20,485 nt of DNA from the UHGV virus genome UHGV-0139389, one strand, 5' to 3'. Shown here one piece after another: positions 3,042 to 20,354 of this stretch; position 1 is the first letter of the stretch, and the number at the start of each line of letters is the position of its first letter. The notes under the pieces are model-generated. The model was not told where the DNA came from, searched no databases, and worked only from the letters and a program-made list of their open reading frames with translations. This stretch comes from a virus. The position numbers were made by a program, and so were the translations under genes.

Positions 3042-3051
3042 TCGACGCAGC

Positions 3052-3104
3052 GGGGCTAAATAGCCCCAGATACCTGAAAAGCTCCTTCTCATAGGGGCTT
3101 TTTT
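3052..3104 (+). terminator. Putative terminator region: hairpin GGGGCT-AAAT-AGCCCC then GGGGC + T6
   Basis: GC stems followed by TTTTTT at 3099-3104, 11 nt after stop of 2793-3041. Confidence 0.4.
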
Positions 3105-3105
3105 A

Positions 3106-4620
3106 CGTCTATAAAGAGACTCTATACAATCCCTTTCCTTTCCTTCCCAGAATCTATCCCGTACCTTAAAAGCAATAACTCTATAGCTTACTCTATAGCC
3201 CCTTATCAAATCAACTTAAATATAAGCCCATAACCCGAAAGGGAAGGGCAACCATTTAAACGCTCTATAAAGCCCTATAACAGCCTTATCAACCTAACTT
3301 AAGCAATCATATTAACCCACTCTAAAAAGCCCTTTATAGAGCTTCCCAGAGCCTTAAAAGAATCTTATAAGGGTGTAAGCTTTATTATCTCGTTAGCTAT
3401 CTTGTGAACTACTAAAAAGGGCTTGATAGTCACTAAAAAGCATGTTATAGGGGCTATAAAGTTACTTTGAAGTAGCTTAAAAGTTACGTAAATGCTAGCC
3501 CCCTTAACATTTTCTTAACAATTTCTTAACAATCCCTACATAGTTATGCTTTTAAGGCACTTATTAGAGACTTGTTAGCCCCTTGTTAAATCTCTGTTAA
3601 GACCACGTAAAAGCCTTGTAAGAGTCTTTAGCATAGCCTTTAAAGCCTCTGTAAAGCCCTATAAAGAGGTGTCTGTATAGTTGGGGTGTAATTACTAGGA
3701 AGAGACTTAAAAGAGCTTACAAGGAGCTATAGAGAGCTTTTAAGAGGGCTATTTAGAGAATCACTAAGAGGGAAAGGGAACGATAAGAAAAGAGATAGTG
3801 ACCATGTTAATAGCTTGTTAAAAAGATTAAACACTTGTTAGGAACTTGTTAATTATCCCTACAAAATAACTCTTTAAAATTAACTTGTTAGCTCTTGTTA
3901 GTCATCTGTTAAGATTCTGTAAAGTCTATGTATCAACTGTTAAGAAACTGTTACATCCTTGTTAGTTCTGTTAAGAATCTGTTAAGACCTTTGGAGAGAT
4001 GTTAAGAGCTTGTGAGAACTGTTAAGAGATTGTTAAGGATATTTTAAAATTTTGCAAAGTACTTGTAAGGGAGTTGTTAAGGGCTACCAAGCAGATATAC
4101 ATCTTCTACAGATATTTTTGAGTTCCTTCAAAGACCCTAAAAAAATGACTTGATAGTCTTATTTTATAAAAATTTTAAAAATCTGAATAATTACCTAGAC
4201 AGTCTTTTAAAAATACAGGTAGAAACAGGCTTATAAGATACCTTGTTAGTACCGTGTTAGACCTTGTGAGATAAGGTCTGTGAAGATATTCCTGTTAAGT
4301 TTGTTAAAACAGTCTATATAGAGGCTTAGTAGTGCCTAGTGAACACCTATAGAGAGTCACATAGCTAACCTAGAGATTAAGAGGTGTATAGAGGCTTCTA
4401 AGAGCGTATAGAGAGATGGTTAAGGTGATTGTATAGGTTGTTAAGAAGGCTTGTTAGAAGAGTGTTTAGAGGGCTTATTAAAGGGCTAGTTAGAAGGCTT
4501 ATACAGGGGGGGGGGCTATTAAGACCACTAGATAGTTACTAAGATACTATATAGTACTATATAACTATATAGAGAGTAAGATTAAGAAGGTTGTTAAGAG
4601 GGATAGATATTTTGTTCACA
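3106..4620. repeat. ORF-free AT-rich region with dense degenerate short repeats ((C)TTGTTA(A/G)G, CTATAAAG, TATAGAG families)
   Basis: No ORF >=60 aa on the gene-bearing strands; CTGTTAAG / CTTGTTAG motif recurs repeatedly (e.g. 3575, 3592, 3885-3900, 3945-4025, 4245-4300, 4435-4455, 4590). Confidence 0.75.
4506..4515 (+). other. G10 homopolymer tract
   Basis: GGGGGGGGGG in otherwise AT-rich non-coding DNA. Confidence 0.9.
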
Positions 4621-4670
4621 TATGATGGTGACCCAGAGGTTGGGACAACCGATAAAATTTTATAAAAATT

Positions 4671-4693
4671 AAAAAGCCCCCAATTAAGGAGGC
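4671..4693 (-). terminator. Rho-independent terminator of minus-strand block
   Basis: Minus strand GCCTCC-TTAATT-GGGGGC followed by TTTTT, 13 nt downstream of stop at 4706. Confidence 0.5.
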
Positions 4694-4705
4694 TCTTAAG
4701 ATATT

Positions 4706-9444: not shown

Positions 9445-9835
9445 AAAAACCTCTCTCTGCTTGTTCAATTTTTGCTCTTAAAGTTTCGCAATGCTGTAAA
9501 TGGTAGTTAGCTTCTTGTTCATGTGTTGCTAACTGCCTTTCCAGAACAGTTTTATAGTAACCTGCAAGTTGCTCTTTTGTCAATGGGTGCTCTGAAATAA
9601 TATCAAGTCCACTTTCACCAAGAGGATTGAATTGTCCATGCTCATTGACATTGTAAGTCTCAAACTTGAACATACCATTGTTCACAGACTCAATAGGTGA
9701 CAGTTCAACAAGCTCTACAGTAAACCGTGTATACACCTTGTCGCCTCTTGAAACTACATTGTTTCCAATGATGCGTACAAGTGAACCGTTACGAGTGTAC
9801 TTAAAAGTCCCAAAGTCACTAGCCCAAAGTTTCAT
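9437..9835 (-). CDS. hypothetical protein, 132 aa
   Basis: ATG at 9835 with TAAGGAG RBS. Confidence 0.65.
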   Translation of the reverse strand: MKLWASDFGTFKYTRNGSLVRIIGNNVVSRGDKVYTRFTVELVELSPIESVNNGMFKFETYNVNEHGQFNPLGESGLDIISEHPLTKEQLAGYYKTVLERQLATHEQEANYHLQHCETLRAKIEQAERGFYE

Positions 9836-9852
9836 AGTTTTCTCCTTAGAAA

Positions 9853-9875
9853 ATAAAAAAGGCTCCCGAAGGAGC
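9853..9875 (-). terminator. Rho-independent terminator after lysozyme gene
   Basis: Minus strand GGCTCC-TTCG-GGAGCC followed by TTTTTT, 12 nt after stop. Confidence 0.65.
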
Positions 9876-9886
9876 CTATGAAGATA

Positions 9887-10351
9887 TTACTTTGGGTATA
9901 CACTGTCAAGATAAATGTCAGCTTCCATTCTACGTCTGTTTTTCAGACCGTTTGAAGTGACCTTCTTACCTTTGACTGTAACCTTGTTCCACCACTGCAT
10001 AGCTTCTGCACAACCTACCTTATTACCAGCATTGTGGCGCTTGATAAATGTGGAATCCTGCATAGCTGTGATACCGATGTTGTATGTTTCACTTACAAGT
10101 GCATCGAACTCATTCTGAGTAGTTGGAACCTTGATAGCTTTGTTCACTGCTGCAACAAACTTCTCAACATCCGCGAGAAGATACTGTTCAGCTTGTTCAG
10201 CAGTAATTTTCATACCCATCTTAACAGGTTTTCCGTCAATACGGATTGTCCCATACCCGATTGTTGGGATTCCGGCAGAATCTTCGTAAGCCTCTAACTC
10301 CAGACCTTCGAAGAACTTAATAGCATCTAAACCTTTTCTTGAGAGTTGCAT
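9887..10351 (-). CDS. endolysin, glycoside hydrolase family 24 (T4 lysozyme-like)
   Basis: Motif FEGLELEAYEDSAGIPTIGYG (catalytic Glu, TIGYG) as recalled for T4/P22-type lysozymes; 154 aa. Confidence 0.85.
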   Translation of the reverse strand: MQLSRKGLDAIKFFEGLELEAYEDSAGIPTIGYGTIRIDGKPVKMGMKITAEQAEQYLLADVEKFVAAVNKAIKVPTTQNEFDALVSETYNIGITAMQDSTFIKRHNAGNKVGCAEAMQWWNKVTVKGKKVTSNGLKNRRRMEADIYLDSVYPK

Positions 10352-11484
10352 TACGCCTCCCCTGCTGGGTTAACTGTAACTGTTGCTGCATTGGATGTTA
10401 CAGAGCCACCTGCACCAGTAACTACACAGGTGTAGCTTCCTGCATCAGCAGCGGTCGCACCTTCTTTGGTGTAAGTTGCAGTAGTTGCATCAAGGATGTC
10501 TTCCTCACCTTTCTTCCACTGGTAACCTGTCGCACCTGTTGCCACAACATTCAGCGTTAAGGTCTCACCTTCATTGATTTCTTGATTGGTTGGCTGTTGA
10601 GTGATTACCGGAAGTGCGTTAACAGTAACCGTTGCAGGGCTAGAAGTGACAGAACCACCTGCACCTGTTACAACACAAGTGTATGAACCTGCATCTGCTG
10701 GCAGAGCACCAGACTTACTATAGGTTGCATCTGTAGCCGAAGGAATGTCAGAGCCATCTTTCTTCCACTGATAACCTGTTGCACCTGTTGCAGTCACTTC
10801 CAAGTTGATGTTTCCACCCTCATTGACGGTCTGGCTAGAAGGTTGTTGTGTAATCACAGGCAGTGCGTTGACAGTAACTGTTGCCGCATCTGAGGTAACG
10901 CTTGTCCCAGCCTCTCCAGATACAACACAAGTGTATGAACCGGCATCAGAAGGTTCTACAGACTGTTTTGTGTAGGTTGCAGATGTGGCGCTAGTGATAT
11001 CCTCACCATCCTTTTTCCATTGATATCCAGTGGCATTAGTTGCAATAACGCTTAGGGTAAGTGTACCACCTTCATTTACTGTTTGATTGGTTGGCTGTTG
11101 AGTGATTGATGGTGGCTTGATGGCGTCCTTCAACTTAGCATTCAACATTGAGAATGGTTTAACTCTTGCCAGCCATTCGCAATAAACTGTATCAACGTCT
11201 TTACCATTGATAATTGTATATTGTAAGTCCATGAAGAAGTCAGAAGTTCTCATTTGAGCACCAACACTGTAAAGCAACTCATCACTAAATGGAACTTTGT
11301 AGTCTGGTTTATAGTCAAACTTCTCAACTTCTGCAATATCAGCTTCAGGCCAATACGAGCTATAGGTAAGTGGTAAAATAGCCTCTTGATATGTTCTAAA
11401 ATCATATCTCTTACCAGCCTTTACGTTTGCAATGAAGCCCTTCACAAACTCTTTGAAGTCTGGGTAAGTCTTTGCTTTAATCAT
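10351..11484 (-). CDS. virion surface/decoration-like protein: N-terminal domain + three tandem Ig-like domains
   Basis: Three ~83-aa repeats each with GYQWKK...DAGSYTCVV (Ig-like I-set signature); N-terminal 120 aa paralogous to product of 11481-11852; function inferred. Confidence 0.7.
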   Translation of the reverse strand: MIKAKTYPDFKEFVKGFIANVKAGKRYDFRTYQEAILPLTYSSYWPEADIAEVEKFDYKPDYKVPFSDELLYSVGAQMRTSDFFMDLQYTIINGKDVDTVYCEWLARVKPFSMLNAKLKDAIKPPSITQQPTNQTVNEGGTLTLSVIATNATGYQWKKDGEDITSATSATYTKQSVEPSDAGSYTCVVSGEAGTSVTSDAATVTVNALPVITQQPSSQTVNEGGNINLEVTATGATGYQWKKDGSDIPSATDATYSKSGALPADAGSYTCVVTGAGGSVTSSPATVTVNALPVITQQPTNQEINEGETLTLNVVATGATGYQWKKGEEDILDATTATYTKEGATAADAGSYTCVVTGAGGSVTSNAATVTVNPAGEA

Positions 11485-11852
11485 TTCTTTTCAGCCTCTA
11501 AATGTGCGTTTAGTCTAAAATAACCTTTGTGATTCGGAGATACATCACCAACGACAATACCTTTAACCTTATAGCCTTTACCAATTACATACTGGATATC
11601 CATAAGGAATCTTCCAAGACCAACAATATGGAACATTGGGTATAATAGATTCTCAGAGTCTGGAATATTGATTTCAGGTTTGTAGGTACGCTGTTCGCTT
11701 GTTGGTGTAATATCTTCTTCAGGCCATTTACTGAGTCTCCATGTCAAAGGTGTTGGGATAACATCATTAAGGTTGTACCTTTCACCATTTTGCACGGAAT
11801 TGATATAGGATTGTAGGAAGCAATAAAAGTCTTTTGCACTCTTAGCTTTCAT
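11481..11852 (-). CDS. paralogue of N-terminal domain of the Ig-like protein, 123 aa
   Basis: Shared motifs WPExDI, YKP, LLY, F(L/F)MD(I/L)QY; ATGA overlap with downstream gene; AAGGA RBS. Confidence 0.65.
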   Translation of the reverse strand: MKAKSAKDFYCFLQSYINSVQNGERYNLNDVIPTPLTWRLSKWPEEDITPTSEQRTYKPEINIPDSENLLYPMFHIVGLGRFLMDIQYVIGKGYKVKGIVVGDVSPNHKGYFRLNAHLEAEKK

Positions 11853-11899
11853 TAAATATCCTTATAAATAGTTAAAGGGGCATCAGCCCCTATTCACAC

Positions 11900-12490
11900 T
11901 TAAGCTTTGGTCTTAAGTAGGTTCTTAAGTTTTTTAAGATTCATACTCTCATCAAACTTAAAACCAAATCCATTGACATAATCAATGAACTCGGATTTCT
12001 TACTGAGTGACAATGCGTAACTCATATCAAAGTTCTTACTTGTTTCTGCGTCTGGACTAGAGTTCACATCAAATGAAATTTCCGTAGGCTCTTGCTTACT
12101 TTTTCTCATATTATCAACCAACAAACATGTATAGTTTGCTGGATAGAAATTTACACTACCATCAACGTAGCTGTACTTATTATTATGGATAAGGTTGGAA
12201 AATACCTTAAGGAATGTTTCTGAGTCGTGGCAAACAAGTTTGAATTGGCTGCTCTCTCCAAGCGCAACTAATGAATACGGACTTTCACTATCAAAGTCAT
12301 AATTTGGATTCGATGACGTTACTGTTACACGCATCAAGTTATTAGCAATAGTCTTCTGTTTAAAAGAATTTGGAACATAGTGAAGACCTCTATCACACTG
12401 ATTAACTAATTCTTTCAATAGGTCATTTGCATATGGTGAATTAATTGATACAGAGCCATCACTATTGTAATTAAAACTTACTGTTAACAT
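11900..12490 (-). CDS. hypothetical protein, 196 aa
   Basis: ATG at 12490; hairpin AGGGGC-TGAT-GCCCCT downstream at 11874-11889. Confidence 0.6.
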   Translation of the reverse strand: MLTVSFNYNSDGSVSINSPYANDLLKELVNQCDRGLHYVPNSFKQKTIANNLMRVTVTSSNPNYDFDSESPYSLVALGESSQFKLVCHDSETFLKVFSNLIHNNKYSYVDGSVNFYPANYTCLLVDNMRKSKQEPTEISFDVNSSPDAETSKNFDMSYALSLSKKSEFIDYVNGFGFKFDESMNLKKLKNLLKTKA

Positions 12491-12717
12491 TTTTCAGTTC
12501 TCCTGCGATTTATAATTTTGCTGCAATAGAGAAACGAAGTAAACTCACTGGAAGAAACCATTAAGTGTTGTTCACTAGATTGAGCCATTGCCCTGAAATA
12601 CATTCCAGTCAAAGCATCATAGTGACTATTCTTTCCAATTGAGGTTATATAGCCATGACTCTTTGCAGTTTGATATAAGTCTATAATATCTGCGATTTCT
12701 AATTGGGAACTACACAT
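12484..12717 (-). CDS. hypothetical protein, 77 aa
   Basis: ATG at 12717. Confidence 0.5.
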   Translation of the reverse strand: MCSSQLEIADIIDLYQTAKSHGYITSIGKNSHYDALTGMYFRAMAQSSEQHLMVSSSEFTSFLYCSKIINRRRTEKC

Positions 12718-12860
12718 AGATAATCCTCTTGTCTTCTGTAATTTTGAAAGAACAGGTACAGACCAATTTCAGAGGATGAATAGTAGATTAACTCTACCCT
12801 TTTTGATTCCTTACAGTGATTGGTATTCTTACCTTTCTTCGGTTTATTTGATTTTCTCAT
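12699..12860 (-). CDS. hypothetical basic protein, 53 aa (start trimmed from TTG 12881)
   Basis: ATG at 12860 with AAGGAG 6 nt upstream. Confidence 0.5.
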   Translation of the reverse strand: MRKSNKPKKGKNTNHCKESKRVELIYYSSSEIGLYLFFQNYRRQEDYLCVVPN

Positions 12861-13562: not shown

Positions 13563-14978
13563 ATGAGCGAATTATTTAAACATGCGCACCTTCATGCAGG
13601 TCGAACTGAAAATGGTGCTGTAAACCATACTTCATCAATGTCTGCTCTTGTAGACTTTTACAAAGCTGCTGGTTCAAGCCGTAGCAATGTAGAAATCTTA
13701 CCAGACTTGTTCTACAAAGCTTTGCGTGAGGATGTTGATGTTGCAGTTCGTATTTTGCTTCATATGCGAGATGTACGAGAAGGTATGGGTGAGCGTAAAG
13801 CCTTCAGAACTGTTTTGCTTCAAGCAATTGAAGATAAAGTTTTAGAGCCTACACAGGTTCTTCGCATTATGGATAAGATTGCAGAACTTGGTCGTTTTGA
13901 TGACTTCAAAATCTTCGTGGGTACTTGTTTCGAGACAGATGCCTTCAAACATTTAGAAGCAGCATTACTAGACCCTGCAACAGCAGGTTTGGCGGCTAAG
14001 TGGTTACCACGAGTCAAACCACGTCATAAGCAGTTTGTAAAACGTTTCTGCAAGTTTGCCAACTTGAGCGAGAAAGAGTACCGCACACTGTTATCTGCAC
14101 TATCTGATACAGTTGAGCAAAAAATCTCTGCTAATGAGTTTGGCAAGATTGACTACAGTAAGGTTCCCTCACTTGCTGCTGCACGTTACCAAAAACTGTT
14201 TAACCGTAAGGATGGAGAACGTTACAAAGCTTACATTGAGTCCTTATCAAAAGGTGAGGCTAAGATTAATGCTGGTGCTGTTTACCCATACGATGTGATT
14301 AAATCTGTCAAGCATGGTAATGCAGATGTTGCTAATGAGCAGTGGAAAGCACTACCAAACTGGATGGCAGAAGGTGAAAACATCTTGTGTATGTCTGATG
14401 TATCAAGTTCAATGTCTTGGGTGAATTTTGGCTCCATTACTGCTCTGGATATTGGTGTATCACTTGCCTTGTATGTAGCAGAACGCAATACAGGTTGCTT
14501 TAAGAATGAGTTGATGGTTTATTCAACAAACCCTCACTTCATCGAACTGAGTGGTGATTTACGAAACCGTCATCGTCAGGTGATGCGACACGTTGAATAT
14601 GGCTCAACTAACTTACAAGCAGCTTTTGACCGCATTCTTGAGACAGGCAAAAGAAACAACTTGACTCAGAAAGATATGCCAAGTAAGCTTATCATCTTCT
14701 CCGATATGGAGTTTAATCAGGTTGATGGGGCTAACGGTCGTACAAACTTTGAAGCAATTCAGAGTAAGTACAAAAAAGCTGGATATGAGATGCCACAACT
14801 GGTATTCTGGTACTTAGCAAACCGTAATGGTACTTGCGAAGTATCTGTTAAGGATAACGGTGTAGCAATGGTATCAGGGTTCTCTCCAGCCACTTTAAAA
14901 GCTCTGCTTGGTGGTGAGAAGTTTGACCCAATCAGTGTAATGCTCAAAGCAGTAATGATTGACCGTTATATCTGGTAA
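13563..14978 (+). CDS. vWA-domain protein with helical N-terminal domain; candidate Ro60/TROVE-like (Rsr-like) RNA-binding protein
   Basis: MIDAS motif ILCMSDVSSSMS (DxSxS) and later FSDME strand = vWA fold; N-terminal ~280 aa helical with GMGERKAFR; resemblance to Ro60 (DVSxSM, FSDEM, MxSGF) is from memory, not a search. Confidence 0.75.
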   Translation: MSELFKHAHLHAGRTENGAVNHTSSMSALVDFYKAAGSSRSNVEILPDLFYKALREDVDVAVRILLHMRDVREGMGERKAFRTVLLQAIEDKVLEPTQVLRIMDKIAELGRFDDFKIFVGTCFETDAFKHLEAALLDPATAGLAAKWLPRVKPRHKQFVKRFCKFANLSEKEYRTLLSALSDTVEQKISANEFGKIDYSKVPSLAAARYQKLFNRKDGERYKAYIESLSKGEAKINAGAVYPYDVIKSVKHGNADVANEQWKALPNWMAEGENILCMSDVSSSMSWVNFGSITALDIGVSLALYVAERNTGCFKNELMVYSTNPHFIELSGDLRNRHRQVMRHVEYGSTNLQAAFDRILETGKRNNLTQKDMPSKLIIFSDMEFNQVDGANGRTNFEAIQSKYKKAGYEMPQLVFWYLANRNGTCEVSVKDNGVAMVSGFSPATLKALLGGEKFDPISVMLKAVMIDRYIW

Positions 14979-14996
14979 AAAGTTTTAAAAAGGGTA

Positions 14997-15025
14997 TTGA
15001 CAATGTGTTTGATACCCTTTAATAT
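14997..15025 (+). promoter_or_regulatory. sigma70-like promoter TTGACA-17 nt-TAATAT upstream of tRNA array
   Basis: Counted spacing; second weaker TTGACA at 15088. Confidence 0.45.
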
Positions 15026-15143
15026 GTTCTACATAGAAACGAAATGAGAGCTTTTCTAAGATACTGAAAAATATTTTAAAAAAGTTCTTGACAACCACTA
15101 AAAAATAATGTTAAAGTGGTTACATAGAGTTTGAAAAGTTTAT

Positions 15144-15220
15144 CTCTGTTTAGCTCAGCTTGGTAGAGCGTTCCGTTTGGGGCGGTAAGGCCGGAGGTTC
15201 AAGTCCTCCAACAGAGACCA
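15144..15220 (+). tRNA. tRNA-Pro (anticodon TGG)
   Basis: Acceptor CTCTGTT/AACAGAG (C1-G72), T-arm GGAGG-TTCAAGT-CCTCC, loop TTTGGGG, CCA encoded. Confidence 0.8.
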
Positions 15221-15227
15221 AATTAAT

Positions 15228-15305
15228 GTTCCAGTAGACAAAATGGTAAAGTCACCACTCTTTCAAAGTGGATATCTGAGGGTTCAAATCCCTTCTGGAA
15301 CGCCA
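15228..15305 (+). tRNA. tRNA-Glu (anticodon TTC)
   Basis: Acceptor GTTCCAG/CTGGAAC, anticodon stem CCACT/AGTGG, T-loop TTCAAAT, CCA. Confidence 0.8.
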
Positions 15306-15312
15306 GTTTTGA

Positions 15313-15385
15313 CAGAAGACCAATTACAGCAAACTTAATCTACTCATCTGAAAGTTAATCGGACAAAGAAGATATTTGGTCTGGT
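15313..15385 (+). ncRNA. Stem-closed spacer RNA element U1 (conserved 5' CAGAAGACC..TACAGCAA, 3' GGTCTGG)
   Basis: 5' AGACCAA pairs 3' TTGGTCT; member of 4-copy family with compensatory changes. Confidence 0.4.
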
Positions 15386-15395
15386 CATTAAGAAT

Positions 15396-15472
15396 TGCGG
15401 GTATAGAGAAAGGGCGTCTCACATGTCTCATTAGCATGGTATCGGCAGGTTCGACTCCTGCACCCGCCTCCA
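15396..15472 (+). tRNA. tRNA with anticodon CAT (Met or Ile-lysidine)
   Basis: T-arm GCAGG-TTCGACT-CCTGC, acceptor 6 bp with 1-72 mismatch, loop CTCATTA, CCA. Confidence 0.7.
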
Positions 15473-15478
15473 AATTTA

Positions 15479-15545
15479 CAGAAGACCGTTTACAGCAATA
15501 TTTATTAAATTTTTAGCGGAAAAATTGAAAGATACGGTCTGGTAA
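15479..15545 (+). ncRNA. Stem-closed spacer RNA element U2
   Basis: 5' AGACCGT pairs 3' ACGGTCT; conserved TACAGCAA after stem. Confidence 0.4.
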
Positions 15546-15555
15546 TACTAAACAT

Positions 15556-15632
15556 GGTTAGGAAGCACATAAGGTATGTGCGGTCGCCTGTTAAGCGAAT
15601 GGCACAGGGTTCGAATCCCTGACTAACCGCCA
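15556..15632 (+). tRNA. tRNA-Asn (anticodon GTT)
   Basis: T-arm CAGGG-TTCGAAT-CCCTG, acceptor GGTTAGG/ACTAACC (one mismatch), loop CTGTTAA, CCA. Confidence 0.75.
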
Positions 15633-15701
15633 AATTTAGGAGAGAAGCGATTGCTCACCGATTTGTAAGGTGCAAGTCCTTAGCCTGAATAGAAATCAAA
15701 T

Positions 15702-15789
15702 GTGTCGTTATCCCGTAGATGGTAGCGGTGGGGACTGTAAATCCCTTGTCATTGAGACTCGGTAGGTTCGACTCCTACACGGCACACCA
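15702..15789 (+). tRNA. tRNA-Tyr (anticodon GTA), long variable arm
   Basis: Acceptor GTGTCGT/ACGGCAC, loop CTGTAAA, T-arm GTAGG-TTCGACT-CCTAC, 85 nt + CCA. Confidence 0.8.
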
Positions 15790-15795
15790 AATAAA

Positions 15796-15873
15796 GGTTA
15801 TGTAGTTTAATCTGGTTAAAATACTCCCCTGTCACGGGAGATGATGAGGGTTCAAATCCCTTCATAACCGCCA
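15796..15873 (+). tRNA. tRNA-Asp (anticodon GTC)
   Basis: Acceptor GGTTATG/CATAACC, stem CTCCC/GGGAG, loop CTGTCAC, CCA. Confidence 0.85.
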
Positions 15874-15934
15874 ATTTTGAGAGGGCTATTTAGCCCCTCC
15901 CTTAAAGAGTTCTTACGAGTATTCTTTAAAGGAG

Positions 15935-16010
15935 CAGAAGACCAAATACAGCAAGAATGTATGAAATTTCAAGCCAATTCAATTTTGAAAATTTAAAACT
16001 TGGTCTGGCT
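15935..16010 (+). ncRNA. Stem-closed spacer RNA element U3
   Basis: 5' AGACCAA pairs 3' TTGGTCT; conserved 5' CAGAAGACCAAATACAGCAA. Confidence 0.4.
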
Positions 16011-16022
16011 CAACAAATTTAC

Positions 16023-16153
16023 AGAAGACCGTTTACAGCAAAACTTAAACAATCTATTTCTCCGGTAAAGAAAAGGCGAGGGTTCGATTCCTTCACTCGG
16101 CAGATGTCGAGTTGGTGTAATGGTAGCACTTAAGATGATAAACAACGGTCTGG
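16023..16153 (+). ncRNA. Candidate Y-RNA-like (YrlA-like) RNA: terminal stem enclosing tRNA-like module without anticodon arm
   Basis: 8-bp stem AGACCGTT(16026-16033)/AACGGTCT(16144-16151); inside: T-arm GAGGG-TTCGATT-CCTTC (16078-16094), capped acceptor-like hairpin ACTCGGC-AGAT-GTCGAGT (16095-16112), D-arm-like GTG-TAATGGTAG-CAC. Confidence 0.45.
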
Positions 16154-16160
16154 TAATTAC

Positions 16161-16292
16161 CTTTGTAGATAAGTTATTAAGCTTACTTGTGAGTATGCGA
16201 CCACAAAGGGTGAATGGGTAAATTCTAGATTTAAACCCAAAAAGGCACATCGCTACAGACCTTAAGCAAGTCTGGGTAGCTTATCTACAAAG
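16161..16292 (+). ncRNA. Structured element closed by perfect 13-bp long-range stem
   Basis: CTTTGTAGATAAG (16161-16173) is exact reverse complement of CTTATCTACAAAG (16280-16292); internal hairpin CAGAC-CTTAAGCAA-GTCTG. Confidence 0.4.
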
Positions 16293-16302
16293 ATAATTTA
16301 AT

Positions 16303-16378
16303 GGAAGTGTAGCAGAATGGTGATGCGGCAGACTTTTAATCTGACAGGCGATGGGTTCGAATCCCTCCACTTCTACCA
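16303..16378 (+). tRNA. tRNA-Lys (anticodon TTT)
   Basis: Acceptor GGAAGTG/CACTTCT (G1-U72), loop CTTTTAA, T-loop TTCGAAT with weak T-stem, CCA. Confidence 0.7.
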
Positions 16379-16382
16379 ATAT

Positions 16383-16459
16383 GGTTCAGTCGCAGATAAG
16401 GTAATGCAAGGGTCTCATAAGCCCTATGAATGTGGGTTCGATTCCCATCTGAACCTCCA
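16383..16459 (+). tRNA. tRNA with anticodon CAT (Met or Ile-lysidine), second copy
   Basis: Acceptor GGTTCAG/CTGAACC, stem AGGGT/GCCCT, loop CTCATAA, T-loop TTCGATT, CCA. Confidence 0.8.
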
Positions 16460-16460
16460 A

Positions 16461-16536
16461 GCTGGTATAGTTAAGAAGGTTATAACACTCCCCTGATAAG
16501 GGAACATCGGTGGTTCGATTCCACCTACCAGTACCA
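16461..16536 (+). tRNA. tRNA-Ile (anticodon GAT)
   Basis: Acceptor GCTGGTA/TACCAGT (G1-U72), T-arm GGTGG-TTCGATT-CCACC, loop CTGATAA, CCA. Confidence 0.8.
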
Positions 16537-16551
16537 ATTTCAATAAAGTTG

Positions 16552-16580
16552 TTGACATTGAGATGTGACTACTTTATAGT
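16552..16580 (+). promoter_or_regulatory. Internal sigma70-like promoter TTGACA-17 nt-TATAGT
   Basis: Counted spacing 17 nt; best consensus match in window; precedes ~200-nt unassigned spacer and tRNA-Arg. Confidence 0.5.
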
Positions 16581-16782
16581 AACCTTAGTTTTCGTTGCGT
16601 AGCGTCTATTTTGCAAATTTAAAATAAATGCAAACGACAATGTTTTTCTGGCAGTAGCTTGATAGGCTAAACACCAGTGAGGTCTTCCAATCCCTCATCA
16701 AAGAATTTGGCGTACTCGCCCACGGTATGATTAATAAGGTGGGCATCTTTAAGGGCTTTCTAAGAGAGTCTTTAAAGATAAT

Positions 16783-16859
16783 GCACCCTTAGTTCAATTG
16801 GATAGAGCAACGGTCTTCTAAATCGTTAGTTACAGGTTCGAATCCTGTAGGGTGTACCA
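16783..16859 (+). tRNA. tRNA-Arg (anticodon TCT)
   Basis: Acceptor GCACCCT/AGGGTGT (G1-U72), D-arm GTTC-AATTGGATA-GAGC, loop CTTCTAA, T-arm ACAGG-TTCGAAT-CCTGT, CCA. Confidence 0.85.
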
Positions 16860-17001
16860 AATAGTTAGCAGATTGCTTAGACGACCTTATCGGGTCTCCG
16901 TGTAAGGAGGTGGTCTGTATCTCATGTTTTCCAGAACATGTAAATAATCTGAGAAGGGGCTTTACAGTGTTGAGATAATACGGTAAGCTTCGAATTATAG
17001 T

Positions 17002-17084
17002 ATGGGACGATGTTAAGACTCTAAGGCATGAGCAACGGCTTCCAACACCGTTTCAAAGGGGTTCAACTCCTCCGTCCCATGCCA
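17002..17084 (+). tRNA. tRNA-like, probable anticodon CCA (Trp), non-canonical D region (80 nt)
   Basis: Exact 7-bp acceptor ATGGGAC/GTCCCAT, T-loop TTCAACT, loop TTCCAAC, CCA encoded; ~7 extra nt between acceptor and anticodon stem. Confidence 0.45.
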
Positions 17085-17097
17085 AAGTCTTATTAGG

Positions 17098-17185
17098 GGT
17101 AGGTAGCGGCTAATGGTAGCCAAACTGTCTTGAAAACAGTTGCCACTGTAGAGATACGGTGAGGGTTCGACTCCTTTACTTACCG
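17098..17185 (+). tRNA. tRNA-Ser (anticodon TGA), long variable arm
   Basis: Acceptor GGTAGGT/ACTTACC, stem ACTGT/ACAGT, loop CTTGAAA, 20-nt variable arm, T-loop TTCGACT; no encoded CCA. Confidence 0.75.
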
Positions 17186-17342
17186 CCTAATAAGATTTAA
17201 AGCCAAGCTTCATTCGGATGTTGCTTTGGTATACCGCGTGTATTGTTGTACACACTGATAAAACACCTAGTAGGTGTCACGGAGAAGAGATAATATCAAG
17301 CTCTCCAAAGGTTCTAGTCACCGGATTAAACAAGACTATGCA

Positions 17343-17363
17343 AAGACCTTTTTAGGTCTTTTT
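17343..17363 (+). terminator. Weak hairpin + short T-tract
   Basis: AAGACC-TTTTTA-GGTCTT then TTT. Confidence 0.3.
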
Positions 17364-17442
17364 AGAGGGCTTCTAAGGTTATTACAGCTTGTTGTGGAAC
17401 CTTGTTGCTTAGGTTCTTAGAAGTTCTCTAAAAAGATTTAAT

Positions 17443-17519
17443 GCACCTATAGCCCAACTGGTAGAGGCAGCAGACTTAGAATCTGCTCAGTGTGAGTTCG
17501 AATCTCTCTAGGTGTACCA
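17443..17519 (+). tRNA. tRNA with anticodon TAG (Leu by anticodon) but short variable loop
   Basis: Acceptor GCACCTA/TAGGTGT (G1-U72), stem GCAGA/TCTGC exact, loop CTTAGAA, 5-nt variable loop, A73, CCA. Confidence 0.7.
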
Positions 17520-17526
17520 AATTAAT

Positions 17527-17602
17527 GCAGGTGTAGCAAAATGGTTATGCGGCTGACTCTTAATCAGTAAGACGATGGGTTCAATTCCCTCCACCTGTAC
17601 CA
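17527..17602 (+). tRNA. tRNA-Lys (anticodon CTT)
   Basis: Acceptor GCAGGTG/CACCTGT (G1-U72), loop CTCTTAA, T-loop TTCAATT, CCA; paralogue of tRNA at 16303. Confidence 0.75.
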
Positions 17603-17608
17603 AACAAT

Positions 17609-17684
17609 GGGGTCATAGTTTATATGGTTAAAATTCGAGTTTTGCAAACTTGGGAACTGAGTTCAATTCTCAGTGACTCCACCA
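17609..17684 (+). tRNA. tRNA-Ala (anticodon TGC)
   Basis: Acceptor GGGGTCA/TGACTCC with G3-U70 wobble (Ala identity element), loop TTTGCAA, T-arm CTGAG-TTCAATT-CTCAG, CCA. Confidence 0.85.
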
Positions 17685-17690
17685 ATTAGT

Positions 17691-17765
17691 GCATCCATAG
17701 TTTAAACGGGAAAATTACAGTCTTCCAAACTGAGGTTGAGGGTTCGATTCCCTCTGGATGCTCCA
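17691..17765 (+). tRNA. tRNA-Gly (anticodon TCC)
   Basis: Acceptor GCATCCA/TGGATGC, loop CTTCCAA, T-arm GAGGG-TTCGATT-CCCTC, CCA. Confidence 0.85.
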
Positions 17766-17772
17766 AATTAAT

Positions 17773-17848
17773 GCTCCTATCGTATAATTGGTTATTACGG
17801 TTGCCTTGTAAGCAACTTATCAGGGTTCGAGTCCTTGTGGGAGCACCA
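17773..17848 (+). tRNA. tRNA-Thr (anticodon TGT)
   Basis: Acceptor GCTCCTA/TGGGAGC, stem GTTGC/GCAAC, loop CTTGTAA, T-loop TTCGAGT, CCA. Confidence 0.85.
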
Positions 17849-17944
17849 ATTCAGAGGTCAAGTGAAAGACCGCTTTGAGTCAACTGAAGACCGTAACAAA
17901 TTCCACGAAGTTGAGTTAGCGGCACAACTTCAGACCTCTTTCAT

Positions 17945-18019
17945 ACTCGCTTAGTTTATATGGTAAAACATCACCCTTACAAGATGAAGAAAAAGGTTCA
18001 AGTCCTTTAGTGAGTACCA
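17945..18019 (+). tRNA. tRNA-Val (anticodon TAC)
   Basis: Acceptor ACTCGCT/AGTGAGT, D-arm GTTT-ATATGGTA-AAAC, loop CTTACAA, T-arm AAAGG-TTCAAGT-CCTTT, CCA. Confidence 0.8.
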
Positions 18020-18020
18020 T

Positions 18021-18098
18021 GTTCCAGTATCCCAATTGGCAGAGGATGCAAGCTCAAACCTTGTATTAGTGACGGTTCGAATCCGTCTTGGAACACCA
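18021..18098 (+). tRNA. tRNA with anticodon CAA (Leu by anticodon) but short variable loop
   Basis: Acceptor GTTCCAG/TTGGAAC, loop CTCAAAC, T-arm GACGG-TTCGAAT-CCGTC, A73, CCA. Confidence 0.7.
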
Positions 18099-18103
18099 AT
18101 TTT

Positions 18104-18179
18104 GCAGGATTAGTTCAAATGGAAAGAGCAACAGTCTACGAAGCTGTTAATAGGGGTTCGAATCCCTTATCCTGCGCCA
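18104..18179 (+). tRNA. tRNA-Arg (anticodon ACG)
   Basis: Acceptor GCAGGAT/ATCCTGC, D-arm GTTC-AAATGGAAA-GAGC, loop CTACGAA, T-arm AGGGG-TTCGAAT-CCCTT, CCA. Confidence 0.85.
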
Positions 18180-18196
18180 GATAAAAAGGTGATACT

Positions 18197-18439
18197 ATGC
18201 AAACATTAACAGTAGTTGAACATGAAAACTGTGAGAGTATTGAGTTTGTCAGGGTCATTGGTGTTGAACACCACATTTTCTTAAAAGTGGGATACTTATG
18301 TGACCCCGCTAGAGTAGAAAGATTTATACGTGATTGTTTTGGTGGTAGACAGCTGAAGAGTGTTATTTTTGAGACAGTTTTACCAGAAGGTTTAGAAACG
18401 AATAATAACATTTACCTCCTTACGAGGATTAGACAATGA
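18197..18439 (+). CDS. hypothetical protein, 80 aa, embedded in tRNA array
   Basis: ATG at 18197 with AAGGTG RBS; ATGA overlap with next ORF. Confidence 0.55.
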   Translation: MQTLTVVEHENCESIEFVRVIGVEHHIFLKVGYLCDPARVERFIRDCFGGRQLKSVIFETVLPEGLETNNNIYLLTRIRQ

Positions 18440-18993
18440 GATACTTAAAGTATGCTTCATGGATTTTCTTAGCTTTGTTAGAGCCATTTGCAGCAATCTT
18501 AGCAGTTATCTTAGCACCTTTTGTAGTTCCATTCTACAGTGAGAAGAAAGGACACTTACCTTTCGGGTTCAGATGGATGGAGACTTATGACAACCCAATT
18601 GATGGTGATGCAGGTCATATCAAACGATGGGCTAAGATTAGAAAGATTGGTAAGCTTGGTGTCTACATGCAGAGAGTTGGATGGCTCTGGAGAAACAAAG
18701 CTTATAACTTCTCTTACCATGTATTAGGAAGAGATGTAAAAGATGTTACTAAGTGGAAAGGTAATATCAACGTAAGTTCTAACCCTGAAGATAATCAGAC
18801 TGGTTATCTCCTAATGTGGAACAGTAATGCTTGGGGATTATTCGCTTTTGTGCCGTCAATCAAAATCTTTGGTAAACAATTTTACTGGAGAATTTATGTT
18901 GGGTGGAAACTTAAAAGTGTTGTCCCAGAAGAAAGAGCATTTTCAAGGGAAAGAGTTATGTTGGCATTCTTTATTCATCCACTAAGAAAGTAA
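18436..18993 (+). CDS. hypothetical membrane protein, 185 aa (N-terminal TM helix)
   Basis: ATG at 18436, GAGGA RBS; hydrophobic N-terminus WIFLALLEPFAAILAVILAPFVVPF. Confidence 0.6.
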   Translation: MRYLKYASWIFLALLEPFAAILAVILAPFVVPFYSEKKGHLPFGFRWMETYDNPIDGDAGHIKRWAKIRKIGKLGVYMQRVGWLWRNKAYNFSYHVLGRDVKDVTKWKGNINVSSNPEDNQTGYLLMWNSNAWGLFAFVPSIKIFGKQFYWRIYVGWKLKSVVPEERAFSRERVMLAFFIHPLRK

Positions 18994-19001
18994 AGATTTA
19001 A

Positions 19002-19077
19002 AGGGGATTAGTTTACAAGGTTAAAACCTCGGTCTTTGAAATCGAAGAAGTTGGTTCAATTCCAACATCCCCCGCCA
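19002..19077 (+). tRNA. tRNA-Gln (anticodon TTG)
   Basis: Acceptor with A1/C72 mismatch then GGGGAT/ATCCCC, loop CTTTGAA, T-arm GTTGG-TTCAATT-CCAAC, CCA. Confidence 0.75.
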
Positions 19078-19079
19078 AT

Positions 19080-19158
19080 GCTCCATTACTCCAATTGGCA
19101 GAGAGGCCAGACTTAAAATCTGTGTTATGTATCGGTTCGAATCCGATATGGAGTACCA
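19080..19158 (+). tRNA. tRNA with anticodon TAA (Leu by anticodon) but short variable loop
   Basis: Acceptor GCTCCAT/ATGGAGT (G1-U72), loop CTTAAAA, T-arm ATCGG-TTCGAAT-CCGAT, A73, CCA; D-arm paralogous to tRNAs at 17443 and 18021. Confidence 0.7.
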
Positions 19159-19163
19159 AATTT

Positions 19164-19239
19164 AGCGGTATAGCATAACTGGCAATGCAGCAGTCTCTGA
19201 AGCTGTCCTATTAAGGTTCAAATCCTTATGCCGCTGCCA
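19164..19239 (+). tRNA. tRNA-Gln (anticodon CTG)
   Basis: Acceptor AGCGGTA/TGCCGCT, D-arm GCAT-AACTGGCA-ATGC, loop CTCTGAA, T-arm TAAGG-TTCAAAT-CCTTA, CCA. Confidence 0.7.
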
Positions 19240-19270
19240 CTTCTAAGGATTCTTACGAGAGTCCTTAAAT

Positions 19271-19346
19271 GTGGCCTTATCATAAATGGTAATGACCCAT
19301 GCTGTGAACATGGTCTATACGGGTTCAAATCCCGTAGGTCACCCCA
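19271..19346 (+). tRNA. tRNA-His (anticodon GTG)
   Basis: Acceptor GTGGCCT/AGGTCAC, stem CCATG/CATGG exact, loop CTGTGAA, C73, CCA. Confidence 0.85.
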
Positions 19347-19352
19347 ATTTAT

Positions 19353-19428
19353 AGTCCAAGTAGCTTATATGGTTAAAGCGCGTGTCTGAAAAACATGAGA
19401 AGAGGGTTCAAATCCCACTGGACTACCA
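19353..19428 (+). tRNA. tRNA-Phe (anticodon GAA), boundaries +/-2 nt
   Basis: D-arm GCTT-ATATGGTTA-AAGC, stem CGTGT/ACATG, loop CTGAAAA, T-loop TTCAAAT; acceptor register ambiguous. Confidence 0.65.
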
Positions 19429-19444
19429 ATTTCAAAGGTGCTTA

Positions 19445-20179
19445 ATGAAAGAGATGACAGAACAAGGTAAGGAGATTTTCAATCTCTTAAAAACCGGTAA
19501 AGGGTTTTCTAACCCCCTTATTACTGGTGCAGCAGTTCTCGGTGGAACCGTAGCTGCCTCTACATCACTTGTAAGCTCTATTAGCTCTGTATCAGACCCT
19601 ACAGTAAAGGATAAGCTTGTTGCTGCTGGACTTACAACAGTTCTGCTTAACAGCTTTACCACGAGTCTGACAAGCACTACATCAACTACCAAAACACTAA
19701 CAGATTACGGTCAAAAGTCCATTGATGAGTTTTCATCACGTATGCAGGTAGCAAAAGGTTACTCTAATGTTATGGGTGCAGCAGGTGAACAAGTTGGCTG
19801 TACACCATTTAGTGGTATTATGGGTGTTGCTACAGAGTATGGTCAAAAAGCTATTGATACGATTAACAGTGCACTAGATAGTGTTAATGGTGTGTTAAGT
19901 GACTTACAAGATGCTATTGACAAAGGTCTTGATACTATTTCTGATTTAGCTGAGCAAGCTGTTAGTAAGATTAATGAAGGTATTTCAAAAATTACAGCTT
20001 ATGCAGATGAAGTTGTGCAGATGATTGAAGAAGAAGCTGCTCTTATTGCAGAGTACCTTAAAACGAATATCAATGGGTTCTTAGCAGGTATCTTACCAGA
20101 CTGGTTTGATGATGCTTGTAAAACTGGTGTAATTGACACTATTGCAACACCAGAAATGAAGAACGCATTACAGAAATAA
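19445..20179 (+). CDS. hypothetical protein, 244 aa, Ser/Thr-rich segment (start trimmed from 19382)
   Basis: ORF-track start 19382 lies inside tRNA-Phe; first ATG after the tRNA is 19445 with AGGTG upstream. Confidence 0.6.
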   Translation: MKEMTEQGKEIFNLLKTGKGFSNPLITGAAVLGGTVAASTSLVSSISSVSDPTVKDKLVAAGLTTVLLNSFTTSLTSTTSTTKTLTDYGQKSIDEFSSRMQVAKGYSNVMGAAGEQVGCTPFSGIMGVATEYGQKAIDTINSALDSVNGVLSDLQDAIDKGLDTISDLAEQAVSKINEGISKITAYADEVVQMIEEEAALIAEYLKTNINGFLAGILPDWFDDACKTGVIDTIATPEMKNALQK

Positions 20180-20181
20180 AT

Positions 20182-20274
20182 GGAAGATTAACCCTAAAAG
20201 GTAAGGGAGCAGTTTGCTAAACTGCTAGTAGCTGAGAAATCGGTGTACCAGTTCAAGTCTGGTATCTTCCTCCA
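20182..20274 (+). tRNA. tRNA-Ser (anticodon GCT), long variable arm
   Basis: Exact acceptor GGAAGAT/ATCTTCC, stem GCAGT/ACTGC, loop TTGCTAA, ~21-nt variable arm, T-arm ACCAG-TTCAAGT-CTGGT, CCA. Confidence 0.8.
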
Positions 20275-20278
20275 ATTT

Positions 20279-20354
20279 GAATCCGTGACAGAAACGGCTA
20301 TGTGCCTGTCTGCAAAACAGGTTTATAAGGGTTCGAGTCCCTTCGGATTCTCCA
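20279..20354 (+). tRNA. tRNA-Cys (anticodon GCA)
   Basis: Exact acceptor GAATCCG/CGGATTC, stem CCTGT/ACAGG, loop CTGCAAA, T-loop TTCGAGT, CCA. Confidence 0.85.

Follow-up and report, generated by a model that had tools for sequence, protein, structure and literature searches.

What do two coupled and related genes encode, when one of them ends where its neighbour goes on into a string of Ig-like domains? The initial annotation of this 20,485-nt stretch of viral DNA (the window) proposed a long and a short surface form of a capsid decoration protein. The whole window is Felixounavirus DNA and shares 97-99% identity with phages LMP34 and wV8. Overall, we consider it probable that the long gene encodes a known hexamer decoration protein, and that the short gene is an old duplicate of its anchor, non-stoichiometric in the virion and likely an intracellular accessory. 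The features to which we refer are as follows.

9860-9877, minus strand: terminator-like hairpin with T-run, end of the short gene-decoration gene-endolysin unit
9887-10351, minus strand: endolysin (Phage_lysozyme, Pfam 4.5e-41)
10351-11484, minus strand: predicted hexamer-centre capsid decoration gene (long gene), 377 aa (9ncf_S, 9c2d_S, phrog_3995, synteny with wV8 gp41)
10354-10614, minus strand: Ig-like unit D, 261 nt, aa 291-377 with the PAGEA tail at the C terminus
10615-10863, minus strand: Ig-like unit B, aa 208-290, 249 nt (Pfam, repeat families, unit limits)
10864-11115, minus strand: Ig-like unit A, aa 124-207, 252 nt (Pfam Ig_3/I-set, repeat families D1-D3, unit limits)
11116-11484, minus strand: capsid-binding (anchor) domain, CapBD, aa 1-123 of the long protein
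11481-11484, minus strand: ATGA overlap of short-gene stop and long-gene start (sequence)
11481-11852, minus strand: CapBD-only paralogue (short gene), 123 aa (E 8e-17 to the long protein)
11859-11863: the short gene's own Shine-Dalgarno sequence, AAGGA
11877-11890, minus strand: GGGGC-TGAT-GCCCC hairpin separating an upstream 196-aa gene from the short gene

Gene order and the probable hexamer decoration gene

Both proposed open reading frames, of 377 and 123 aa, were found on the minus strand, and their coupling by an ATGA overlap is borne out at 11481-11484, where the short gene's stop and the long gene's start read ...GAA AAG AAA TGA / ATG ATT AAA. Downstream, the stop of the decoration gene overlaps the endolysin start by 1 nt (TAATG), and a GGGGAGG Shine-Dalgarno sequence precedes that start. 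The hairpin at 9860-9877 is a terminator in the wV8 annotation, as is the GGGGC-TGAT-GCCCC hairpin, which is called rho-independent there and t38 in Felix O1; the 53-nt stretch around the latter (11853-11905) folds at -14.4 kcal/mol (z -2.1). Given the two overlaps and the flanking terminators, the short gene, the decoration gene and the endolysin would form one unit. We propose that this terminator-bounded unit is late, and that the short gene is translationally coupled to the decoration gene. Expression of Felix O1 ORFs 36 and 37 peaks at 60 min for both (PMC3185647). A putative motif for a late promoter, ACTATTTATAAGG, lies upstream of the short gene; it has four matches with at most two mismatches against 1.0 expected, a number reached in 3 of 100 shuffles. 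A sigma-70 scan found nothing upstream of the gene pair.

The long protein aligns at full length, from residue 1, with two solved chains, 9ncf_S (E 2.9e-286) and 9c2d_S (E 1.4e-167); it matches phrog_3995 at 4.4e-209, and its gene is syntenic with wV8 gp41. Alignment and synteny make Bas63 Hex-Dec, Sf14 gp20, Felix O1 gp36 and wV8 gp41 its orthologues. The long protein has the N-terminal CapBD, the string of Ig domains (one to four in the family) and the Arg79 and Arg107 that mark Hex-Dec and Sf14 gp20, and as in that family its gene stands outside the structural module and directly upstream of the endolysin; in Bas63 the distance from the module exceeds 10 kb (PMC12609058). The CapBD differs from the Bas63 chain at 3 of 115 aligned residues, and the dN/dS of the anchor is 0.02-0.12. 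Both arginines are kept in the window (QMR79TSDFF and LAR107VKPF) and are invariant across the CapBD clade; in Sf14 gp20 they form salt bridges to MCP Asp221 (PMC11821841).

In the T=9 capsids resolved by cryo-EM for Bas63 and Sf14, the N-terminal domain is a monomer in the middle of hexamers that lie off the threefold axes (PMC12609058, PMC11821841), and the virion proteomics that the initial annotation called for exists for the Felix O1 orthologue, gp36 being a virion protein by mass spectrometry with 44% coverage (PMC3185647). On the strength of 97% anchor identity, the long protein is probably carried in virions at the same hexamer centres. The suggestion that an anchor plus Ig-like domains is the layout of a capsid decoration protein has thus stood up, through orthologues seen by cryo-EM, and by orthology the product of the 377-aa gene would be a Hoc-like protein that decorates the hexamers of a Felix O1-like phage, a role shown in close relatives. 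In the mechanism we propose, the N-terminal CapBD of about 120 aa would insert as a monomer into the centre of an MCP hexamer of the T=9 head, would use only hexamers off the icosahedral threefold axes (presumably 60 of 80, from T=9 geometry) and would be held partly through Arg79 and Arg107. The three acidic I-set Ig domains would project outward as a flexible fibre, probably for adhesion or aggregation if the analogy with T4 Hoc holds. The decoration role is already published, with structure and copy-number variation out in 2025; since the long protein is an already-solved Ig-fibre decoration protein, this part of the finding is largely ordinary.

Databases, however, call these genes "tail protein", "major tail protein" or "HK97 major tail subunit". 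Record annotations and PHROG matches to the major-tail-protein families phrog_158 and phrog_853 speak for the label, but those matches are confined to the Ig region (aa 96-208), the homologues with solved structures are chains of the capsid, and the Bas63 paper calls the label inaccurate (PMC12609058). The cryo-EM assignment in close relatives refutes it; the label is wrong, and we give a tail role next to no probability. The main value of the analysis is accordingly corrective, as a decoration gene is still widely mislabelled. Tail-tube membership was tried as a candidate and rejected: phrog_158, phrog_853 and phrog_3575 occur only in the Ig region, with no tail-tube Pfam family. Still harder to credit is a ribosomal frameshift at the ATGA junction that would fuse a double anchor to the Ig string, although an A-rich run (GAAAAGAAATGA) does lie there. 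The junction has no canonical X_XXY_YYZ heptamer, a stop in the long frame only 9 nt upstream of the long ATG confines any shift to a window of 6-7 nt, the SUSP2 junction differs (8-nt overlap), and Felix O1 virion gp36 is listed at 31.6 kDa, the predicted unfused mass (PMC3185647).

Ig units and their probable recombination

Three Ig-like repeats of about 83 aa had been described after the domain of about 120 aa, and both Pfam (Ig_3 1.4e-34, I-set 7.2e-27; three stretches each) and the unit limits agree. The Ig part of the protein has a pI of 4.1 and a net charge of -14. The accompanying claim of a tandem DNA repeat of about 250 bp at 10354-11115 is right as to coordinates and register, the copies being spaced by 249/252 nt in seed-and-extend comparison, but the copies have diverged to about 65%: the units share 64-65% DNA identity and 69-71% amino-acid identity, with longest exact common runs of 13-25 nt. 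Tandem Repeats Finder reported no array in the long gene because the copies are too diverged, and the DNA repeat is visible only by seed-and-extend and protein-guided unit alignment.

When units are typed after the four-unit phage Shy (A-B-C-D), the window reads A-B-D; its last unit corresponds to unit 4 of Shy, and unit C is missing. Relatives with one, two or four units carry chimeric units, in register and joined at GYQWKK: Felix O1 has A and a B/D chimera, EC6 an A/D chimera, and REP11 an A/B chimera and D. In a spread sample of 60 of the 214 records, the spans fit one, two, three and four Ig units. The supposed recombination hotspot does behave as a recombination substrate, as these chimeras attest, and in-register recombination between diverged 250-nt units has probably produced the one to four Ig domains found across the genus. 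The copy-number variation itself is already published; the chimeric junctions are a concrete route to rapid change in fibre length.

The anchor-only paralogue

That the 123-aa product is homologous to the first 120 or so residues of the 377-aa product was confirmed by BLASTP (37% identity over 101 aa, E 8e-17) and by reciprocal PHROG matches (short protein to phrog_3995 at 4.7e-15, long protein to phrog_4463 at 7.9e-17). The short protein is Felix O1 gp37, wV8 gp42 and phrog_4463, and it matches 9ncf_S at E 1.2e-11. Its AF2 model (pLDDT 70) has only 9c2d_S and 9ncf_S as PDB matches (TM 0.67-0.72), and fold searches of PDB and BFVD gave only family members, with no link to Hoc, pb10 or another fold. 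Pfam and NCBIfam scans of the short protein returned nothing, and word-indexed protein searches returned only close relatives. An exhaustive profile search of 1.84 billion proteins found 13 representatives, so the family is small; one of the 13, the 632-aa repeat protein P0101, looks spurious.

The pair is retained in Felixounavirus, Mooglevirus, Suspvirus and a divergent 87-kb metagenome contig, with short copies and anchors in separate clades. On this sequence evidence the short gene arose long ago as a copy of just the anchor domain. Its dN/dS of 0.10-0.23 across three genera shows that purifying selection maintains it, though at a rate of evolution several times that of the anchor. The conservation profiles of short proteins and anchors are correlated (rho 0.41, p 4e-6). 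At the same time, Arg79 has become Gly78, and position 107 is Asn, Gln, His, Lys or Arg. The short protein thus has the fold and the homology of a Hex-Dec but neither the anchoring arginines nor a displayed domain; it is a paralogue, not a Hex-Dec. Its reading frame is intact in 233 of 253 records and pseudogenised in about 19; REP11 and Z31 carry a pseudogene with a 223-bp deletion that lacks the ATG and Shine-Dalgarno sequence. The gene is dispensable, having been lost without loss of viability in the REP11/Z31 lineage. These pseudogenes and the faster evolution might suggest a functionless remnant of duplication drifting to loss, a reading that we find very improbable in view of the low dN/dS in three genera, the large majority of intact frames and the retention of the gene, at 44-47% identity, by a divergent lineage with saturated synonymous sites.

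Is the short protein part of the virion? The virion list of Felix O1, which is limited to proteins of 25% coverage or more, does not include gp37 (PMC3185647), and ORF40, the short protein of VpaE1, is not among the additions to the virion list as the text of that report gives it. Tryptic peptides suited to mass spectrometry cover 83% of the short protein; its tryptic peptides include DFYCFLQSYINSVQNGER and FLMDIQYVIGK. Both lists could have missed a small protein that is low in copy number or loosely bound. The Bas63 and Sf14 cryo-EM papers report no density on unoccupied hexamers (PMC12609058, PMC11821841) and make no mention of a paralogue, a duplication or an upstream gene; the Sf14 supplement comes without a mass-spectrometry protein list, and the wV8 paper, PMC4837284, PMC8954984 and PMC12892995 hold no relevant or informative text. 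In an icosahedrally averaged map, a monomer placed on a threefold hexamer or close to the portal would be smeared out. We infer that virions do not carry the short protein in stoichiometric amounts, and that it is most likely a putative accessory that acts inside the infected cell, using the conserved face it shares with the anchor. Its partners might be MCP hexamers in another state, or Hex-Dec itself.

The initial annotation had instead suggested that it may be a short surface form. Spelled out, this would mean that the long protein decorates some hexamers with an Ig fibre and the short one plugs others as a bare anchor; those others could be the 20 threefold hexamers or the ones proximal to the portal. 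Such an arrangement is appealing, for the two proteins have a common fold with the same positions conserved, both genes are late and coupled, and Ig-less single-copy anchors occur in distant relatives; moreover, Hex-Dec/gp20 leaves the threefold hexamers empty, and with their different Asp221 geometry these could take a diverged anchor. Nonetheless, we consider it unlikely: the short protein, though readily digestible, goes unlisted in the Felix O1 proteome and in that of VpaE1 as its text presents it, the maps are reported without extra density on other hexamers, the anchoring arginines are replaced, and the gene has been lost in the viable lineage of REP11 and Z31. A broader reading, possible but still doubtful, makes the anchor-only paralogue a functional partner of the decoration system, overlooked by both cryo-EM studies. 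It would be either a bare plug at the 20 threefold or the portal-proximal hexamers, lost from view through symmetry averaging or purification, or an intracellular placeholder or regulator that sits at hexamer centres or on Hex-Dec and in this way sets where and when the Ig fibre is mounted.

Our preferred account remains that of an intracellular accessory. Should the short paralogue bind capsid hexamers or Hex-Dec, nature would have duplicated a decoration anchor and stripped it of its display module, in a simple example that could bear on site-selective decoration of T=9 capsids and on the anchor as a phage-display handle.

Comparison with known decoration systems

T4 Hoc resembles the long protein in joining one capsid-binding domain to an acidic string of Ig-like domains, and it too is a monomer at hexamer centres, dispensable, with a proposed role in adhesion or aggregation. 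Its anchor, however, is C-terminal, so that the order is reversed, and topologically distinct in fold (PMC12609058). "Hoc-like" PHROG matches of the long protein cover only aa 121-290, in the Ig region, and T4 Hoc chains are absent from the 50 listed fold matches of the short-protein model, where only 9c2d_S and 9ncf_S reach E<=0.001. Membership of the Hoc family was rejected, as the long protein lacks a Hoc-type C-terminal capsid-binding domain. We know of no anchor-only paralogue in T4. T5 pb10 shares with the long protein a capsid-binding domain at the N terminus, a C-terminal Ig-like domain and a place at hexamer centres, but its chains 5lxk_A and 8zvi_a match only aa 215-290, again Ig region; the pb10 anchor is not among the listed fold matches of the short-protein model and nothing in the anchor region matches it by sequence. 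The pb10 family was likewise rejected, a pb10-type N-terminal domain being absent. The relation of the anchor to Hoc or pb10 that the initial annotation had put up for checking therefore fails, as only the Ig parts match.

A distantly homologous anchor (E 6e-10 to 1e-4) occurs in the BIG2 protein of Erwinia phages of the phiEa104/phiEa21-4 type and in metagenomic proteins P0099-P0104. These have a single anchor gene and no short partner, and they display Big_2, one Ig domain or a Lys/Ser-rich tail rather than I-set repeats; P0103 and P0104 keep the synteny between DUF5681 and DUF2828 genes, P0104 also with lysozyme. Since P0104 is a single-copy anchor with only a Lys/Ser-rich tail, an Ig-less anchor is plausibly a decoration in its own right.

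Much closer is gp20 of the Shigella phage Sf14, a Mooglevirus (9C2D/9C3A chain S), in which an N-terminal CapBD of 118 aa precedes three Ig-like domains, both Arg79 and Arg107 are kept, and only non-threefold hexamers are bound. Mooglevirus genomes, like the window, have the short paralogue upstream; the genus is nonetheless a different one, with diverged Ig units, and the anchor of the window shares 83-89% identity with those of other Mooglevirus phages. The nearest system is Hex-Dec of Bas63 (Escherichia phage JohannRWettstein, 9NCF chain S), from the same genus, with an orthologous gene in the same position, beside the endolysin and not within the structural module, and with the same type of Ig unit; it has four such units in 460 aa, the window three, without unit type C.

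The decoration gene and its coupled paralogue

The gene pair is genuine and ordinary for its phage group, and published work already accounts for all of it except the anchor-only paralogue. At 97-99% identity the region matches Felixounavirus genomes, among them those of LMP34, wV8 and the O157 typing phages; matching phage records number 251. The features concerned, by window position, are:

11877-11890: hairpin GGGGCTGATGCCCC, upstream of the short gene
11481-11852, minus strand: short-gene ORF, 123 aa, with the Shine-Dalgarno sequence AAGGA 6 nt ahead of its ATG
10351-11484, minus strand: long-gene ORF (the decoration gene), 377 aa; its stop overlaps the endolysin start (TAATG, preceded by GGGGAGG)
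11115-10864, minus strand: Ig unit 1, aa 124-207
10863-10615, minus strand: Ig unit 2, aa 208-290
10614-10354, minus strand: Ig unit 3, aa 291-377
9860-9877: terminator-like hairpin with T-run, after the endolysin gene

The short gene ends in ...GAA AAG AAA TGA and the long gene's ATG ATT AAA begins one base earlier, so the ATGA overlap described in the initial annotation is real. The tandem paralogy described with it is likewise borne out, by a BLASTP alignment of the two proteins (37% identity across 101 residues, E 8e-17) and by reciprocal PHROG matches of each protein to the other's family. The wV8 counterparts are gp42, annotated as hypothetical, gp41, labelled "tail protein", and the endolysin, with terminators annotated before gp42 and after the endolysin. 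The overlaps, Shine-Dalgarno sequences and flanking hairpins show that the short gene, decoration gene and endolysin gene form one compact, translationally coupled unit. The sole DNA-level trace of the duplication is a 21-nt patch, 86% identical between the paralogues (11332-11352 and 11706-11726), in the WPE(A/E)DI codons, and the loci examined held no hybrid genes between the two.

The reading of the long gene as a capsid decoration gene was correct, as follows from PDB matches, conservation of the anchor (the capsid-binding domain, aa 1-123) and virion data, and that role is already published. A PDB sequence search returned 9ncf_S ("Immunoglobulin-like domain protein", 460 aa, E 2.9e-286) and 9c2d_S/9c3a ("tail protein", 372 aa, E 1.4e-167), which are the hexamer decoration protein Hex-Dec of phage Bas63 (PMC12609058) and its homologue gp20 of Shigella phage Sf14 (PMC11821841). 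In both, the N-terminal ~118-120 residues form the capsid-binding domain, which sits as a monomer at hexamer centres of a T=9 head and occupies only hexamers off the icosahedral threefold axes; the flexible Ig domains are not resolved (PMC12609058, PMC11821841). Salt bridges link Arg79 and Arg107 of gp20 to the major capsid protein at Asp221 (PMC11821841); the long protein has both arginines, which are invariant in the anchor clade, and its anchor differs from that of Bas63 at 3 of 115 aligned positions. The two-Ig orthologue, Felix O1 gp36, is a virion protein detected at 44% coverage (PMC3185647). The long protein shows every testable feature of the Hex-Dec/gp20 family. Its PHROG matches to "major tail protein" and "Hoc-like" families cover the Ig region only, and the label "tail protein" is called inaccurate in the Bas63 paper (PMC12609058).

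Ig units and their recombination

The long protein carries three Ig_3/I-set stretches (Pfam E 1.4e-34 for Ig_3, 7.2e-27 for I-set), and the limits of its units agree with those given in the initial annotation, 10354-11115. The ~250-bp DNA-level repeat also stands: the copies lie in register at a spacing of 249/252 nt, but are only 64-65% identical (protein, 69-71%), with longest shared exact runs of 13-25 nt, and Tandem Repeats Finder did not report the array. The Ig part is strongly acidic (pI 4.1, net charge -14), as the Bas63 authors remarked for Hex-Dec and Hoc (PMC12609058). GC content peaks here, at 0.46 in window 10001-11000 against 0.35-0.39 in the flanks, which fits either an Ig sequence rich in Gly, Ala, Thr and Pro or an Ig module of foreign origin.

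Copy-number variation is already published, with 1-4 Ig domains predicted across the genus (PMC12609058); what we add is how the variants arise. Each unit was cut at GYQWKK and its halves compared with types A-D of the four-unit phage Shy.

Unit composition of the long protein (phage; length; units)
Shy; 461 aa; A-B-C-D
This window, wV8; 377 aa; A-B-D
HY02; 377 aa; A-B-C-like
Felix O1; 294 aa; A + (B N-half / D C-half)
REP11; 293 aa; (A N-half / B C-half) + D
EC6; 210 aa; A N-half / D C-half

The chimeric half-units show that several independent in-register crossovers have occurred at the GYQWKK codons or close to them. Among 60 records sampled across the 214 that match, with unit number taken from spans, ~21 had three units, ~20 two, ~10 one and 2 four; the short gene was missing in 4. 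Chimeras and spans together support the earlier remark that the repeats are a recombination hotspot. In Shigella phage Z31 (locus L003, 2498-3070), whose short gene is dead, the decoration gene is annotated in two pieces (134 aa and 55 aa), which could reflect an anchor nearly devoid of its Ig part or a sequencing error.

The anchor-only paralogue

Sequence comparison gives evidence that the short gene, which is Felix O1 gp37 (so labelled in the FO1a record), is both real and functional. Of 253 matching records from Felixounavirus, Mooglevirus and Suspvirus, 233 carry it intact, and its pairwise dN/dS is 0.10-0.23 vs 0.02-0.12 for the long-gene anchor. The same gene order recurs in a divergent 87-kb metagenomic contig: a 195-aa gene, a short gene (product P0097, 44-47% identical to short proteins), a long gene (P0098, two Ig domains) and a lysozyme gene. 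Neighbour joining places the short proteins and the anchors in two separate clades. The duplication therefore predates these lineages. No short partner lies beside the single anchors of more distant relatives (phiEa104, P0099-P0104), which share up to 38% identity with the anchor clade and at most 30% with the short clade; the short gene is thus the derived copy. For the AlphaFold2 model of its product (mean pLDDT 70), the sole PDB matches are 9c2d_S and 9ncf_S (TM 0.67-0.72), and BFVD gives only family members. The Bas63 and Sf14 structural papers do not discuss an anchor-only paralogue (PMC12609058, PMC11821841).

The initial annotation proposed that the two proteins are a short and a long surface form. 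Felix O1 ORFs 36 and 37 do both peak at 60 min, as against 25 min for the flanking ORFs 35 and 38 (PMC3185647); the two genes are translationally coupled; and conserved positions correlate between the short and anchor families (Spearman 0.41, p 4e-6), the stretches most conserved in both being the ones that hold the anchor's capsid-contact sites. However, gp37 is absent from the Felix O1 virion table, whose 17 proteins all have at least 25% coverage (PMC3185647), and the text of the VpaE1 report, where the short gene is ORF40, gives 22 virion proteins and adds only gp54, gp58 and gp68 to the Felix O1 set. The short protein should be detectable by mass spectrometry, because 83% of it lies in tryptic peptides of 7-30 residues. 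The cryo-EM papers on Bas63 and Sf14 report no density at the other hexamers (PMC12609058, PMC11821841), a negative limited by icosahedral averaging, in which the signal of a monomer at a threefold axis would be blurred.

The short protein is, moreover, a Hex-Dec/gp20 paralogue without a displayed module and without the anchoring arginines, carrying an invariant Gly at the Arg79 site and Asn, Gln, His, Lys or Arg at the Arg107 site. In REP11 and Z31 the short gene lacks both its ATG and its Shine-Dalgarno sequence, and 223 bp are deleted from its interior, with the decoration-gene start and the hairpin intact; ~19 records are broken in this way. We therefore consider a second surface form unlikely, and prefer a dispensable, non-stoichiometric accessory role that the short protein may play in late infection.

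Genomic surroundings and other anchors

Several further features were observed. Depositors of KhF3, XTG1 and KhF1 annotate a "direct repeat sequence2, possible binding site of StbAB" near the lysin, within the region homologous to window 10200-12000. A 3-kb query (window 9800-12800) has a second match elsewhere in several genomes, wV8 included; this may be a further Ig-like segment or a regulatory element that occurs more than once. Window 3050-4700 holds ~1.6 kb without an ORF of at least 50 aa, is rich in short degenerate repeats (CTTGTTAG, CTGTTAAGA, CTATAAAG), and contains three small tandem arrays as well as a run of 8-9 G near 4506-4514. Gene orientation and GC skew both change over there, and the stretch resembles an iteron-rich region of origin or partition type, or else a genome end. 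Within 13563-20354, a 471-aa DUF2828/DUF7788 protein (PHROG label "RNA-binding protein") is encoded immediately upstream of 26 arrayed tRNA genes (plus strand, 15144-20354), a layout known in Felix O1-like phages. Where flanks suffice, the distant single-copy anchors occupy the same place, after DUF5681 and DUF2828 genes; that encoding P0104 additionally precedes a lysozyme gene.

Comparison of the N-terminal domain with known decoration proteins, suggested at the outset, matched the capsid chains 9ncf_S and 9c2d_S, but not the anchors of Hoc or pb10. T4 Hoc works like the long protein, yet its anchor lies at the opposite chain end, differs in topology and gives no match in sequence; T5 pb10 has the same domain order, with a match confined to the Ig domain. 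Erwinia phage phiEa104 (BFVD E5AFW9) has a single anchor gene, fused to Big_2, and no short partner. The metagenomic proteins P0099-P0103 are single anchors joined to Big_2, a single Ig domain or a module that matches no Pfam family, and P0104 (locus L014, 6001-6462) is fused only to a Lys/Ser-rich tail, which is Lys/Ser/Glu-rich and disordered. Across these relatives, the anchor is a modular handle that carries varied display modules.
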